From: a virus
Taxonomy: Duplodnaviria; Caudoviricetes
Virus record (IMG/VR): IMGVR_UViG_2563367162_000001
Location: 23,569 to 87,568 of that record
Length of the DNA: 64,000 bases
Strand: one strand, 5' to 3'
The position numbers and the translations under genes were made by a program. The notes beneath the pieces are model-generated. The model saw only the letters and a program-made list of their open reading frames with translations, was not told the DNA's origin and ran no database searches. Positions 33,485 to 41,559 of this stretch are shown piece after piece. Within the stretch, counting starts at the first letter, position 1. Each line of letters begins with the position of its first letter.

Positions 33485-33505
33485 CCAACAGTACTATTAC
33501 AGCCA
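33485..33505 (+). repeat. Shufflon recombination site 1
   Basis: CCAACAGTACTATTACAGCCA, exact match. Confidence 0.92.
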
Positions 33506-34341
33506 GATTTGAACAAGGTATATCTATTCCTGATTACATTTTCGTAGGTGATAATGGTGTTATCTTTTCCCAAGAAAAAAAATATATATTGGGTGAAACG
33601 GATTGGTATTCAGTAGTACACGGTAATGGCAAATATATAGCAGTCGGCAAACGTGGATATATGACCACTTCAACAGATGGCAGAACATGGACAGGACCGG
33701 ACATCGTTGGATACTCGTCAGACTGGTATTCAATAGTCTATGGAAACGGAAAATTTGTCGCTGCCGGTAATGGATATGTTGCAGTATCTACGGGCACCGG
33801 AGATTGGAACATTGTCAAGATCAGCAACACCAAGAACCGCACATGGAACAGCATACAATATTGCAATGGCCGGTTTATCGTTGTAGGCAATAACGGATAT
33901 ATGGCAACCTCCACAGACGGAAACGTCTGGCAGGAAACAAAAATTGGCTCCGGTGACTTAAAATCTGTAGCTTATGGAAATGGAATTTATGTCATTGCGG
34001 AAAAAAGTGGTTATATTAATCACTCGACAGACCTGACAAACTGGAACAGGCTAAAAATCACAGTAACCAATTTGTATTCTTCAACATTCGGAAATAATAA
34101 ATTTATTGTAAGTTCCTATGGATATATGCACTATTCCATCGATGGGAAGAATTGGGTGGAGGTAGCCTTTGGGAATAATTCCTGGGAAAAAGTCATATTT
34201 GAAGATAATAGTTTTCTGGCTTTGGAAAACAATGGTTATTTAGGAAAATCCACGGATGGAATTAATTGGAAATCTACCGGAATAATAGAAAGCGGAGACG
34301 TTCGGCTCAGCTTTCTCAATGGTTTTTGTCGCATAAAATAA
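33485..34341 (+). CDS. Silent C-terminal cassette A (beta-propeller, YGNGK/STDG..W repeats)
   Basis: Begins NSTITARF at site 1, has no signal peptide and is homologous to the C-terminal part of 40030-41559. Confidence 0.85.
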
Positions 34342-34373
34342 AAAAATGGTTTTATTGAACTGACAGCATTAAG

Positions 34374-34404
34374 ATAGCGAAACCAATTCTCTCGGTTTCG
34401 CTAT
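34374..34404. terminator. Bidirectional terminator
   Basis: ATAGCGAAACC/GGTTTCGCTAT hairpin between convergent ORFs. Confidence 0.7.
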
Positions 34405-34428
34405 TAAATTTTGCATACAGTGCAAAAA

Positions 34429-34725
34429 CTATAACAACTCTATTTCTTTTACGGATAATCCGGTAGCCTCCGAAATAATCTCAACCAACACACCCAGTTT
34501 CTTTAGATTAAAAGCATTTTCTTTTCTCTCTTTCAGACGGCCTTCAGCTTGCCCTTCTTCCCATCCTTTGGATTCTGCTGTAGCTATGGTGTTTTGCCAA
34601 TCACGATAGACTTTTAGACTTTCTTCATAAGCTTCATACTGTTCTTTTGTGAATTTGGCTATTTCAACCGCTTCAAACAATTTATTAAACACTCTTTCCT
34701 GTAAAGCTTCCGGACGTTCCATCAA
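34429..34725 (-). pseudogene. C-terminal remnant of an Rpn-family (PD-(D/E)XK) protein
   Basis: ERPEALQERVF..LFE..EIA, YEESLK.YRD, EGxxEG repeats and IxxATGLS..EI tail. The nuclease domain is absent. Confidence 0.75.
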
Positions 34726-35171
34726 CCGATGGGGTGAACTGGACTACACCAAAGCAATTTGGTAGTAATACCTGGAATGCTGTAATATATGCTAATGGAA
34801 AGTTTGTGGCTGTTGGATCACATTGTTTCGCGGCTTTGTCGCTTAATGGTGAATTATGGCAGGAATCATATGATTTTCGGATAAATGGAGCGAGTGATAT
34901 AATATATGCAAACGGTAAATATGTTGTGGTTGGAAACAAAGGCTTTACAAATACATCAACCAACGGTTCTGTCTGGGAACAGAAAGTATATGCAGGTAAC
35001 ATTAACTGGAAAGGCGTAGCTTACGCTGACGGAAAATATGTTGCCGTCGGAAGTAGTGGTTACATAACTTCATCGAATGACGGTGTGAGTTGGACTACTC
35101 CAAAACTAATAACAGATGAATCAGGAAATCCTATTACAGCAACTCTAAATAGTATTTGCATCATGCCATAA
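34720..35171 (+). pseudogene. 5'-truncated fifth beta-propeller cassette (E) lacking a recombination site
   Basis: Starts mid-repeat (STDGVNWTTPK) and ends DESGNPITATLNSIC like the other cassettes. Confidence 0.8.
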
Positions 35172-38611: not shown

Positions 38612-38810
38612 AGTTTTCTTTCTCAAAGCAAGCCAACACGACAACAGGTACCGGAAAACTTCTAGTACCTGTTTCTTGCCCGTTTTTAGCCTCATACAGG
38701 ACAAAACGATAACTCTCATTTCACAATCAGAAGACCGTAGAACGAATTTATGACCTGTCGGGATGTTTTTGTTGGAAACACGATAAATAGAATTATTTTT
38801 GTTTCTAAAA

Positions 38811-39973
38811 ATGGATTCATTAAATATTCTGGGCACCCGGCTGCGTGATTGTATAAAAAGCCACCTTCTCCAATTTGGGAAGGGTGATATCAAGGGAAAC
38901 ATATATATACTATTGGGAGGAAATGAATTCACCCTCTCGATATCCGACCTATGTGAGGAGAACGAAGCCTCCCCCCCCAGAAAGAAAAATATTTGGGTGG
39001 GTATTATGACAAGGTCAAGGCAATGCTGCCTGAAGGGGAGACTGACAAGCACTATGTTGCCTTTGTCGATTTTTTCTCTGACGTATGTATGGAGACCGGC
39101 ATCAGGGAGTCCACCCGAAAGAACTATCTCCGGACACTGGATACATTGGAAGAATATGCTCCGGAAGCGGCTTTCTGTGATATAGACAAAATATTCGTAT
39201 GCGGGTACGAGCGCTTTCTTTGTTCCATGGGAATGAAAGCCAACACGATTGTCAAGCATATGAAACATTTAAAAAAGGCACTCCGACAGGCTTGCCTGAA
39301 AGGGTATATCAAACATTCCATAGAGGAATTGTTTAGCCTTTGCAATGTGAAACCGGAGAAAACTTTCAGGGAAAGCCTGACGACTAAGGAACTGGTCGTG
39401 CTCTATCAATTTCAGGAAAACAATTTCGACACGATGGAAGAAAAGGAGCGGGAGATTCTTTCCGGTTTTCTGTTCTCGTGTCTGACCGGTCTGCGCTATT
39501 CCGATATCTGCAAAGTGGAATATTCAAATATTAAACGGATCAGGAACAAGCGATGGCTTTTCCTCACAATGAAGAAGACATCACAGAAAGTTTTTGTTCC
39601 CATTGAACAGATGTTTTCAGGAAAGGCACTCGAAGTGATAAGATTATTTCACCGTACACGGGAAAAACTCTTTTATATGCCGTCCAATGCAGTGTGCAAT
39701 CGGGTTATAAAACGTGTTTACAAGAAGCTTTTTCGCAGCCGGAAAAACATTTCTTTTCACGTTGCACACCATACGACTGCCACCCTTCTGCTTTATCATG
39801 ACACGCCACTCACAACTATAAAGGAAATTCTGGGGCATACCAACATCCGCACTACGGAAATCTATGCGGACATAAACGAGGCGACAATCTACAATTCGAT
39901 ATCCAAGATCAAATTTAAGGAACTAGAAAAGGTTGAACGAAGGATAGCTAGGAGCTTTTCCAATAAAAGCTAA
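38811..39973 (+). pseudogene. Second tyrosine recombinase, frameshifted at a C8 tract and with HxxR>HxxH
   Basis: N-terminal and C-terminal parts are in different frames around 38971-38978; HVAHH replaces HTGRH. Confidence 0.85.
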
Positions 39974-39975
39974 AG

Positions 39976-40020
39976 ATCCACTGCCAAGAGCTTTAGCTTC
40001 TGGTAGTGGACCGAAAAAAA
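39976..40020. terminator. Bidirectional terminator
   Basis: TCCACTGCCA...TGGTAGTGGA stem followed by an A-run, between convergent genes. Confidence 0.65.
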
Positions 40021-40029
40021 CTGTGGCAA

Positions 40030-41559
40030 CTATAAGTCACCGATGATTACGGCACAAACGCCGTTGAGAGTTGCTGTAACTACTTTACCTGATTCATCTT
40101 TTATTTGTTCGGGCGTAGTCCAATTTTCACCATCTGTTGAAGTGGTTACATATCCATTATCACTTATTACTACAAAATTTTCATTTGCGCAACAAACATG
40201 AGCCCCATATTTTACTCCACTTATTATTTTTTTGGGTGTAGTCCAATTTTCACCATCTGTTGAAGTGGTTACATATCCATCGTTATATCCTCTATCTCCT
40301 ACAACCACAAATTTCCCATTTCCATAACAAATATTAGTCCAATCATGAAATATACTTCCTACAGTTATAGGTGTTGTCCAATTTACTCCGTTAGTGGAAG
40401 TAGTTATATTTCCATCATTTCCCACTGCCACAAATTTTCCATTTCCATAAGTAACACCTGAAAAATTACTCATGCTATTGTTTTTAACTTGCTCAGGTGT
40501 TAGCCAATTGATTCCATCTACTGAAGAGGTTGTATAAGTATTATTACCTACTGCAACATATCTTCCATTAGCATAAATAACATCAAACCAATTAACCACA
40601 TTATTTGGTGTCATTGTTGATATTGTCCAATTAATGCCATCTGTTGAAGTGGCTGTATATTCATTAAGACCCATCGTAACAAATTTTCCACCTCCATAAC
40701 AAACACAAAACCAACTAATAGTTAAATTTCCTCCTATGTTTTTGGGTGTTGTCCAATTAATCCCATCTGTTGAAGTAGATATATATCCATCACCTCCCAC
40801 TGCCACATATTTACCATTACCATAAATCACATTTTTCCAGTCCACACTACCAACAATATATCTTTGCCCTTTGGAAAGTATTATTCCATTGTTTCCTACA
40901 ATTATGAAGTTAGATATGGAAATTGGAGGTTCAAAATTGGCTGTAATAGTACTGTTGGTATTATGCAGGGTTGCTGTGGTATTCAAACTGCCTGGATCCT
41001 TGATTGTTACATCCCCTTCAGTAATAGTCCAACCGGTAAATTCATATCCGTTGTCCGGAGTGGCTGTTATGTCAATCGGTTTCTTAACCCGATAGCTGTT
41101 TGTGCCGGAAGGTGAAACCGAACCGCCGGTTCCGGCATTAACAGTAAGGTTCCGTTTCTTTTCTTTGAATCCGCAATGAAAGGTGTGATCCTGACCGCCC
41201 AAATCAACATTAAAAAGGCTCGTTCCTGTCTGTGAATAGTCATATTTTTTAGGCTCATTTGTCGGGCCACCATAGAAGTAACTAACTTCATATCCTCCAT
41301 CGGGGTGCGCTTCAACCACAGGTCGATCTGTTCCATTATACAGTCCCGCTCCTGTAGCATATCCTCCTTCGAATTCCACTCTTCCGTCTGTCGCCCTGGT
41401 TGCCGGGTTTGTCATTCCTTCCCCCTCGATGGTGATCCGTATGTCACCGGGGGGAGTTGTCTTGTCATTTTCTGAACTCTTTTCCAGCATTTCCTCGCTC
41501 TGGCAACCTGCGAATACCGCAACAAACGCTGTCAGAAATAAAAATTTTACTTTCTTCAT
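40030..41559 (-). CDS. Shufflon expression locus: lipoprotein adhesin (constant N-terminus with InlB-B-repeat-like domains plus variable beta-propeller cassette D)
   Basis: Lipobox FAGC, PATRA motif and GYEFTGW domain. Site 4 (NSTITANF) lies at the domain boundary. Confidence 0.88.
   Translation of the reverse strand: MKKVKFLFLTAFVAVFAGCQSEEMLEKSSENDKTTPPGDIRITIEGEGMTNPATRATDGRVEFEGGYATGAGLYNGTDRPVVEAHPDGGYEVSYFYGGPTNEPKKYDYSQTGTSLFNVDLGGQDHTFHCGFKEKKRNLTVNAGTGGSVSPSGTNSYRVKKPIDITATPDNGYEFTGWTITEGDVTIKDPGSLNTTATLHNTNSTITANFEPPISISNFIIVGNNGIILSKGQRYIVGSVDWKNVIYGNGKYVAVGGDGYISTSTDGINWTTPKNIGGNLTISWFCVCYGGGKFVTMGLNEYTATSTDGINWTISTMTPNNVVNWFDVIYANGRYVAVGNNTYTTSSVDGINWLTPEQVKNNSMSNFSGVTYGNGKFVAVGNDGNITTSTNGVNWTTPITVGSIFHDWTNICYGNGKFVVVGDRGYNDGYVTTSTDGENWTTPKKIISGVKYGAHVCCANENFVVISDNGYVTTSTDGENWTTPEQIKDESGKVVTATLNGVCAVIIGDL
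40938..40958 (-). repeat. Shufflon recombination site 4 (inside the expressed gene)
   Basis: TGGCTGTAATAGTACTGTTGG, exact reverse complement. Confidence 0.92.

Follow-up and report, generated by a model that had tools for sequence, protein, structure and literature searches.

A putative four-site shufflon exchanging C-terminal domains of a tra-linked lipoprotein on a conjugative element of gut Bacteroidales

In this study we focus on a stretch of viral-record DNA of 64,000 nucleotides, hereafter the window (positions 23,569 to 87,568 of the IMG/VR record IMGVR_UViG_2563367162_000001), and on an array within it, at positions 33,485 to 41,559. This array is very probably a working tyrosine-recombinase shufflon of a new family, carried by a conjugative element of gut Bacteroidales and switching the binding module of one surface lipoprotein. 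Four identical 21-bp sites lie in it in one codon phase, inversion products joined exactly at these sites occur in public assemblies, and the constant part of the lipoprotein is found fused in frame to alternative C-terminal cassettes. Conjugative elements move most accessory genes among gut Bacteroidales, and to our knowledge the determinants of mating-partner choice in Bacteroidota are hardly known.

Recombination sites, switched gene and cassettes

The exact 21-mer CCAACAGTACTATTACAGCCA is present four times in the window with 0 mismatches (33485+, 36217-, 37647+ and 40938-). In the following list and below, Un is the non-cassette flank of site n and Dn the cassette.

33485-33505 (+): site 1, exact 21-mer; junctions U1-D4, U4-D1 and U3-D1 occur here
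36217-36237 (-): site 2, exact 21-mer; joints 36212 to 37671 (X19) and 36238 to 37647 (X20)
37647-37667 (+): site 3, exact 21-mer; recombinant junctions occur here
40938-40958 (-): site 4, exact 21-mer inside the expressed gene, encoding NSTITA; joint 33484 to 40958 in X19

The chance expectation for such a 21-mer is a mean of 0.00 matches (100 dinucleotide-preserving shuffles). No fifth copy was found in the window at up to 3 mismatches, nor at up to 6, and the whole 87.6-kb record contains no further site outside these four at up to 2 mismatches. The sites follow each other in the order + - + - within 7.5 kb, and thus form a cluster of at least three short specific sites in both orientations, as is characteristic of a shufflon. 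All four translate in one frame as NSTITA, and lead into open frames of 284 (A), 299 (B), 320 (C) and 308 (D) residues. Positions, number and frame are those given by an earlier reading of this DNA (the original prediction). When the four loci are aligned in site orientation, no column is shared over the 100 bases upstream, the 21-mer does not vary, and the coding sequences that follow it have diverged but can still be aligned, in line with the earlier claim that similarity stops just upstream of the site.

The centre of the site is near-palindromic (AACAGTACTATT). Positions 1-19 of the 21-mer are conserved at 94-100%, third codon positions included, among 32 distinct site contexts, a set biased by the picking of sites for their likeness to the 21-mer. 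Moreover, in a comparison of the window with the related loci L005-L008, the gene shows about 70% identity before the site, the 21-mer matches at 21/21 positions, and homology stops after it. The ending ITANF is also usual for B-repeat domains of unrelated proteins, so that the evidence lies in the DNA identity of the site and not in the protein motif alone.

The gene interrupted by site 4, the other cassettes and the recombinase genes are the following.

40030-41559 (-): expression-site gene, constant part plus cassette D, coding for a 509-residue lipoprotein (open reading frame and translation, Pfam, AlphaFold)
40959-41559 (-): constant N-terminal part (U4), found fused to different cassettes in called proteins
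40030-40956 (-): cassette D, apparently the one currently expressed; propeller, 308 residues from the site
33487-34341 (+): cassette A, presumably silent; propeller, 284 residues from the site
35336-36235 (-): cassette B, presumably silent; propeller, 299 residues from the site
37649-38611 (+): cassette C, presumably silent; propeller, 320 residues from the site
34734-35171 (+): siteless relic between A and B, the C-terminal half of a fifth propeller cassette (tblastn, 37-46% to C and D)
36321-37484 (+): rec1, intact tyrosine recombinase of 387 residues (Pfam Phage_integrase, PF00589, E 1.2e-18, and Phage_int_SAM_5, PF13102)
38811-39973 (+): rec2, broken second copy, with a frameshift at the C8 run 38971-38978 and HVAH in place of the HTGR of rec1

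U4 is the only site flank with a start codon, a lipobox and an upstream operon context. The signal occupies residues 1-19 of the lipoprotein (MKKVKFLFLTAFVAVFAGC), ends at Cys19 and is followed by QSEE. The accessible text of a study of Bacteroidota lipoproteins gives Q-A-(D/E)2 as the minimal surface-export signal (PMC5080379); the C-Q-S-E-E of this protein fits it, which suggests that the protein is exposed at the cell surface. In Pfam searches (E<=0.01) the 509-residue protein matches only Flg_new_2 (InlB B-repeat; residues 137-211, E 5e-18) and DUF6242. Site 4 corresponds to residues 201-207, at the end of the Flg_new_2 domain. An AlphaFold model was built from a 16-row alignment (mean predicted local distance difference test, pLDDT, 82.4). 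It displays two beta domains of B-repeat type (39-133 and 135-210) followed by a propeller (218-503), and the second constant domain closes with the strand NSTITANF (203-210). Site 4 thus lies, as predicted, at the boundary between the constant part and the propeller.

The original prediction had also described the protein as pilin-like and built on type V pilus parts, a description that Pfam, BLASTP and the fold search replace by B-repeats and a propeller. No match of the lipoprotein to Mfa_like_1, Mfa2, FimA, PilV or Shufflon_N was found in Pfam at E<=0.01, while the same searches do detect fimbrillin families in the neighbours at 30602-32578, 51103-53531 and 53580-54530. Against the neighbouring 534-residue fimbrillin-like protein, only the B-repeat stretch aligns in BLASTP (E 5e-5). 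Type V pilins are absent from the fold-search matches listed, which on its own decides little. In that search the propeller matches generic PDB propellers, such as Ycf48 and Kelch. For the constant domains, the matches are Ig-like and B-repeat modules of bacterial adhesins, among them the InlB B-repeat entry 2y5p, with scores in the middle range (Z 5.8-6.3). In BFVD, the propeller further resembles BNR, DUF6242 and tail-fibre-associated proteins of phages (best E 2e-16); its sole NCBIfam match, BamI-like, is sub-threshold. Taken together, sequence and model are consistent with a surface binding protein whose specificity module is switched. In public annotations, such proteins appear under no other names than 'InlB B-repeat-containing protein' and 'hypothetical protein'.

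A signal peptide is missing from cassettes A, B and C, and 0-5 codons precede their sites; translation thus agrees with the prediction that sites 1-3 start propeller frames of this kind. The earlier inventory of four propeller cassettes stands, with two omissions: the relic of a fifth cassette, near which no site was found, and the many non-propeller cassettes found elsewhere. Between cassettes C and D lies the second recombinase gene, and the two do not form the simple convergent pair that had been proposed. Terminators between the cassettes had been proposed as well; terminator-like sites in 33200-42400 are not above chance (10 vs 7.7 +/- 2.9 in shuffles). Promoter-like sites in the same interval number 23 vs 24.3 +/- 4.8 in shuffles, in a scan whose coverage does not include Bacteroides promoters.

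Both tyrosine recombinase genes announced between the sites are present, one of them broken, which had been overlooked. The translation of rec1 contains the motifs TGLRYSD, HTGRH and GHTNIRTTETY, and hence the R...HxxR...Y signature of the family; in NCBIfam it has only sub-threshold Xer-type matches. The gene sits on the invertible segment between sites 2 and 3. The product of rec2 is 81% identical to that of rec1 over 325 residues, falls in two frames in tblastn and no longer has the arginine of HxxR. In its central part rec2 hardly differs from rec1, and assembly depth doubles there. The C8 run of rec2 could conceivably act as a phase-variable switch.

These features suggest the following mechanism. 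The rec1 enzyme, riding on the invertible segment, would recombine the four 21-bp sites. Since the sites share their codon phase and lie in the last beta-strand of the constant B-repeat domain, inversion would swap a whole propeller in frame. Inversion between sites 4 and 3 would fuse cassette C to the constant part, and inversion between 4 and 1 would fuse cassette A; cassette B would require a prior flip of its own segment, and the recombinase segment would flip as well. That B needs two inversions, as had been predicted, follows from the site orientations. Only the cassette at site 4 has a start codon, a lipobox and an operon context, so that one cell most likely displays one of four variants.

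Recombinant junctions and in-frame fusions in public data

Twenty public runs from 11 studies, all in the form of assembled contigs (Logan), contain at least 86% of the sampled words of 33300-41700. Contigs of 4 of the 20 runs (X1, X4, X19 and X20) were mapped to the window, with an identity of at least 99% in 69 of 72 mapped contig records. If such contigs are built on 31-letter words, a repeat of 21-25 bases alone cannot join unrelated flanks.

X1 has the arrangement of the window, and its contigs break at sites 3 and 4. In X19, a contig joins 33484 to 40958 on opposite strands (U1-site-D4, the shorter side measuring 185 letters). A contig of the same run that starts at 33485 is preceded by TGCATAATA, the last nine bases of U4 (U4-site-D1), which places the constant part on cassette A; a further joint in this run links 36212 to 37671 (U3-site-D2). 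X20 contains the joint 36238 to 37647 (U2-site-D3) and a loose end matching U3 at 36237, indicating that the recombinase segment is flipped there. This segment is seen flipped twice, in X19 and in X20. In X4, GCCTTCATA, the nine letters ending U3, precede 33485 (U3-site-D1), a state that requires two inversions.

The same behaviour is observed in sibling lineages. Between L095 and L048 (97-99.7% identity), an 881-bp cassette pair lying between two sites is inverted relative to the constant gene, so that a different cassette is fused. In the pair L100 and L111 (98-99% identity), it is the recombinase segment that is inverted. Contigs also break exactly at the sites in X1 (sites 3 and 4), and those of L073 and L112 end at sites. 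The original prediction had expected alternative orientations in other data; the public assemblies contain at least five recombinant junctions at exact sites, in addition to the sibling inversions. Between samples, therefore, segments invert singly and in groups and give several isomers, as in a shufflon.

Fusions are also found at the protein level. A search with residues 1-210 of the lipoprotein gave 112 proteins, and 61/112 contain the exact NSTITA. P0005, which stands for 38 member sequences on 17 contigs, combines the constant part of the window (100% over the covered part) with cassette C, identical at 320/320 residues. P0003 combines a constant part 95% identical with an A-type cassette 86% identical; in P0004 and P0056, a constant part is joined to a B-type cassette. 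Each of the four cassette types of the window thus occurs on some constant part. Indeed, the shared frame and these four proteins (P0003-P0005, P0056) display a further shufflon hallmark, one constant N-terminal part fused in frame to alternative C-terminal segments. The U4-D1 junction and P0005 agree with the earlier proposal that inversion swaps cassettes in frame onto one lipoprotein N-terminus. The locus also explains the contig breaks, and why one 'InlB B-repeat-containing protein' appears at many lengths.

Could the same picture arise with no programmed switch, from relics of paralogous cassettes and rare fixed strain differences caused by chance homologous recombination at short repeats? 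Some features would fit: a mixture within one sample is not directly seen in the 4 runs, one relic cassette and a broken second recombinase speak of decay, and frozen relatives exist (see below). We nevertheless consider this explanation very improbable. At least five different recombinant junctions lie exactly at the sites among four runs otherwise at least 99% identical, and the same site-exact inversions occur in two sibling lineages. An intact tyrosine recombinase is found between the sites wherever these are exact, the 21-mer is conserved at synonymous positions across genes about 70% identical, and all four cassettes are intact and in phase. Moreover, 21 bp is very short for RecA-dependent exchange.

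Related loci and the range of cassettes

The exact 21-mer occurs in 102 metagenome stretches, with 109 exact sites. For 83/109 of them, the upstream DNA is 67-78% identical to the constant part of the window. This lineage includes four species-representative genomes with one site each, in which the gene is about 70% identical up to the identical 21-mer and is followed by an unrelated 152-residue domain. A scan for related loci in species-representative genomes gave 6 loci, four of them belonging to this lineage, and a 21-mer scan at up to 2 mismatches gave a single match in each of 5/401 genomes of one family. The multi-site form was not found in the species representatives searched, which are a sample and often incomplete. 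The viral contigs searched contain no other exact 21-mer, and megablast of 33300-41700 against plasmid and phage record collections gave no match. A whole-protein search of representative proteins returned 28,829 matches dominated by giant multi-propeller proteins, and is uninformative on function.

Allowing up to 4 mismatches, the window and 108 loci contain 138 sites, and the 116 that are followed by 60 residues or more group into 13 cassette clusters: four propeller types, several beta-sandwich types of 120-135 residues, and types of 186-215 residues. Further ones are known from called proteins, for instance the end of P0007, which measures 327 residues. The site is thus shared by at least 13 unrelated types of C-terminal cassette. 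In ten alternative-cassette proteins, Pfam finds no family for the non-propeller ends and only the constant Flg_new_2. The model of a small-cassette protein (pLDDT 82.4) is a beta-sandwich with no fold match at Z >= 8 and no convincing solved relative. For the end of P0007, an Atlas feature likeness of 0.91 gives a lead to a BspA-type leucine-rich repeat (LRR) domain. The cassette type c0 has no Atlas neighbour above 0.76. One protein of 750 residues, P0041, has the constant part and an LRR-like cassette joined to a coupling-protein-like C-terminus, and probably arose as a chimera of assembly or gene calling at a breakpoint of the shufflon.

Two or more sites are present in 20/113 sources. In the layout that they share, traN is followed after about 1.19 kb by the constant gene and the cassette fused to it; then come other cassettes, a rec1 homologue lying between sites, and finally Fic. 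A rec1 homologue lies between sites in L039, L042, L070, L073, L100, L101, L111 and L112, and in 9 of the 20 sources with several sites the array has a Fic homologue as its neighbour. In L015, L044 and L060, the whole interval from the constant gene to Fic is without a recombinase, and the second site has 2 mismatches and a truncated cassette. This is the commonest human-gut relative (L015, L044 and L060, also L031 and L063), in which the constant gene has the 152-residue non-propeller end and faces a decayed A-type propeller cassette, with a site at 2-3 mismatches, a truncated frame and no recombinase before Fic. From its sequence, this commonest human-gut form looks like a frozen shufflon.

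L007 expresses the c0 cassette type, which is silent in L107 and L034; this suggests that cassettes may be exchanged between lineages of the element. In L107 (4430-7650) and L034, three adjacent silent cassettes, each of a different fold, adjoin what is left of a rec1-like gene. In this relative, about 670 extra bases between the cassette A site and Fic encode a 144-residue protein absent from the window. L112, a 1203-base contig running from site 2 to site 3, is without 250 bases inside rec1 (window 37070-37319). A deletion was considered for this gap and rejected: the stretch is shared with rec2 and depth doubles there, so that an assembly collapse is likely.

Genetic context, possible role and known systems

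Going upstream on the lipoprotein strand, one finds genes for a helix-turn-helix (HTH) protein, an M23 peptidase, TraN (DUF4138), TraM, a TrbL-like protein, DUF4141 and the TraG ATPase. The other side of the array carries Fic, a gene for a 658-residue fimbrillin-like protein, ParA, the coupling protein and a DUF5712 relaxase-type gene. The genes closest to the array are as follows.

41562-41942 (-): HTH protein gene (Pfam), ending 2 bases before the lipoprotein start
42186-42749 (-): M23 peptidase (Pfam)
42746-43933 (-): TraN/DUF4138 (Pfam)
32580-33338 (+): Fic-domain gene (Pfam), bounding the far end of the shufflon

The window thus has the tra gene set, a type IV secretion system coupling protein and DUF5712, which together identify a CTnDOT-type conjugative element. 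In the 7/7 sources showing both genes, traN and the constant gene lie on the same strand about 1.19 kb apart, the constant gene downstream, as expected from the predicted position at the end of the tra gene row.

IMG/VR lists the record as a provirus, Mu-like genes are present at 1948-4748 and 15646-17208, and, as noted above, the propeller resembles phage proteins in BFVD. These features raise the question of a phage receptor-binding-protein switch like the Mu G segment, an explanation that we find barely conceivable. The protein has a lipoprotein signal and its gene follows traN, M23 and HTH. A relaxase, a coupling protein, ParA and fimbrillin-like genes separate it from the phage-like genes, and the flanks with traN and Fic recur in related loci, where phage genes are absent. 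Furthermore, the recombinase is a tyrosine enzyme, not a serine invertase of the Gin/Hin type.

Several points weigh against the reading of a working switch that serves mating. The U4-D1 (X19) and U3-D1 (X4) junctions are each read from 9-letter loose ends. Among the rows listed for the 4 mapped runs, none shows both orientations of one junction within one run; the evidence consists of differences between samples, and a mixture within a culture is only hinted at by the contig breaks at sites. The runs, being assembled contigs and not reads, give no isomer frequencies. Silence of cassettes A-C is deduced from their context; A and B have an ATG 5 codons upstream of their sites, and 0/20 carrying runs are recorded as RNA. 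It is by its position and family that rec1 is the candidate invertase. The direct-repeat pairs (1/3 and 2/4) could also yield deletions. The most abundant human-gut relatives look frozen, hence switching is not essential to the element. Finally, the protein is linked to mating by gene order, and, in the accessible text on a pilus tip adhesin of Bacteroides integrative and conjugative elements (ICEs) that is diversified by a diversity-generating retroelement (DGR), deletion of bfrT left transfer unchanged (10.1101/2024.11.15.621889).

Several purposes are conceivable for the switch. A role in cell-to-cell contact during mating, namely recipient choice, is plausible at not much less than an even chance, the link being one of gene order. 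General adhesion or colonisation cargo is possible, well below an even chance, and evasion of antibody or phage is quite unlikely. A donor-recipient contact role is favoured by the fixed place of the gene, last in the transfer row, and would parallel that of PilV in IncI plasmids as described in the available portion of a 2025 review (PMC12282955).

More broadly, the lipoprotein may be cargo that the ICE carries for its host, as a colonisation adhesin, an antigen or a phage-receptor decoy, whose variation would help in attaching to gut surfaces or in evading IgA and phage; the DNA mechanism would be the same, with no role in transfer. We hold this to be somewhat less probable than an even chance. 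The bfrT case shows that Bacteroides ICEs carry diversified adhesins dispensable for transfer, the cassette folds (propeller, small beta-sandwich and, as a lead only, LRR-like) are general binding modules, and the frozen one-cassette form is the most abundant (P0036, with 2918 member sequences; 83/109 exact sites in metagenome loci). Against it, the gene is fixed after traN, M23 and HTH on the same strand in 7/7 sources, and HTH ends 2 bases before its start, an operon-like arrangement. At the other extreme, the site could be a docking point common to gut Bacteroidales conjugative elements, at which at least 13 unrelated binding domains are exchanged and the displayed domain decides the mating partners. 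Exchange would then proceed by inversion within an element, and probably between co-resident elements by recombinase acting in trans. We regard this proposal as unlikely. If true, this would be the first host-range switch of shufflon type found outside the I-complex plasmids of enterobacteria, with adhesin modules traded in an integron-like manner.

The shufflon of R64/IncI1 (Rci, sfx, PilV) is the closest point of comparison for the four-site switch described here. In both cases a conjugative element carries several short sites in inverted orientation and yields many isomers, a tyrosine-family recombinase lies in or beside the array, and a constant N-terminal part receives alternative C-terminal segments in frame. 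The variable PilV ends of R64 bind recipient surface structures. The R64/IncI1 target is a type IV minor pilin, PilV, whereas here it is an outer-membrane lipoprotein with B-repeats and without PilV/Shufflon_N match. What is swapped here are whole folded domains, 120-330 residues long and unrelated in fold; the identical 21-mers lie inside a structured beta-strand, and the recombinase rides on an invertible segment, unlike in R64/IncI1. The host is a Bacteroidota and the element of the CTnDOT type (TraG/J/K/M/N), and a possible mating role is suggested by gene order. The available portion of the 2025 review names conjugative shufflons only in the plasmid groups I1, I2 and B/O/K/Z (PMC12282955).

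Chromosomal shufflons have been described in Bacteroides: BT1040-1046 and BT2260-2268 in B. thetaiotaomicron, Tsr0667 SusC/D in B. fragilis, and hsdS (10.1101/2025.06.24.661302, PMC5729914, PMC3090145). According to the accessible text of these reports, they share with the present array the host order, embedded tyrosine recombinases and multi-step inversions leading to several haplotypes of surface or specificity proteins. They exchange N-terminal parts, entire susC/D pairs or the target-recognition domains of HsdS, by way of repeats of 22-49 bp with a different sequence, whereas here the C-terminal domains of a tra-linked lipoprotein on an ICE are exchanged at a 21-mer of its own. The DGR system of type V pilus tip adhesins, as far as the accessible text describes it (10.1101/2024.11.15.621889), is likewise a gut Bacteroides ICE machine that varies the ligand-binding end of a surface lipoprotein. 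Its mechanism is mutagenic retrohoming and its target is a genuine tip subunit of the pilus, encoded downstream of the genes for anchor and stalk, in contrast to the cassette inversion seen here. In the phage Mu G and P1 C segments (cited in the accessible part of PMC9881135), inversion also swaps a C-terminal receptor-binding part on a constant N-terminus. Those segments have a serine invertase (Gin, Cin), two sites and two variants and act on tail fibres, whereas here there are a tyrosine recombinase, four sites and at least four variants.

In the accessible portions of the literature on Bacteroidota shufflons, conjugation, adhesins and the domains of this protein, we found no description of the system; survey tables of 11,000 predicted loci (PMC9881135) may list members. 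Shufflons are known as a kind. What we did not find in the literature is a Bacteroidota conjugative element exchanging whole C-terminal domains of a tra-linked lipoprotein. The array offers a natural four-state switch on a predicted surface protein at the end of a transfer operon, and its states are already present in public data, so that the mating question is testable with locked variants. Furthermore, the exchange of whole folded domains of unrelated architecture, at a site in the last strand of a constant domain, provides a compact modular surface display.

Fimbrillin-like genes (Mfa_like_1, Mfa2) flank the transfer genes of the element (50780-58321 and 30602-32578). One of them (51927-53531) carries a B-repeat of the shufflon type and a BACON domain, and the shufflon protein might be displayed on or beside such a fibre. 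As to the Mu-like genes, those at 1948-4748 are Mu portal and Mu F-like genes, the latter fused to a papain-fold glutamine-deamidase domain, and 15646-17208 encodes a Mu-transposase-C/rve protein. These genes probably explain the provirus class of the record, although most of the window is an ICE.

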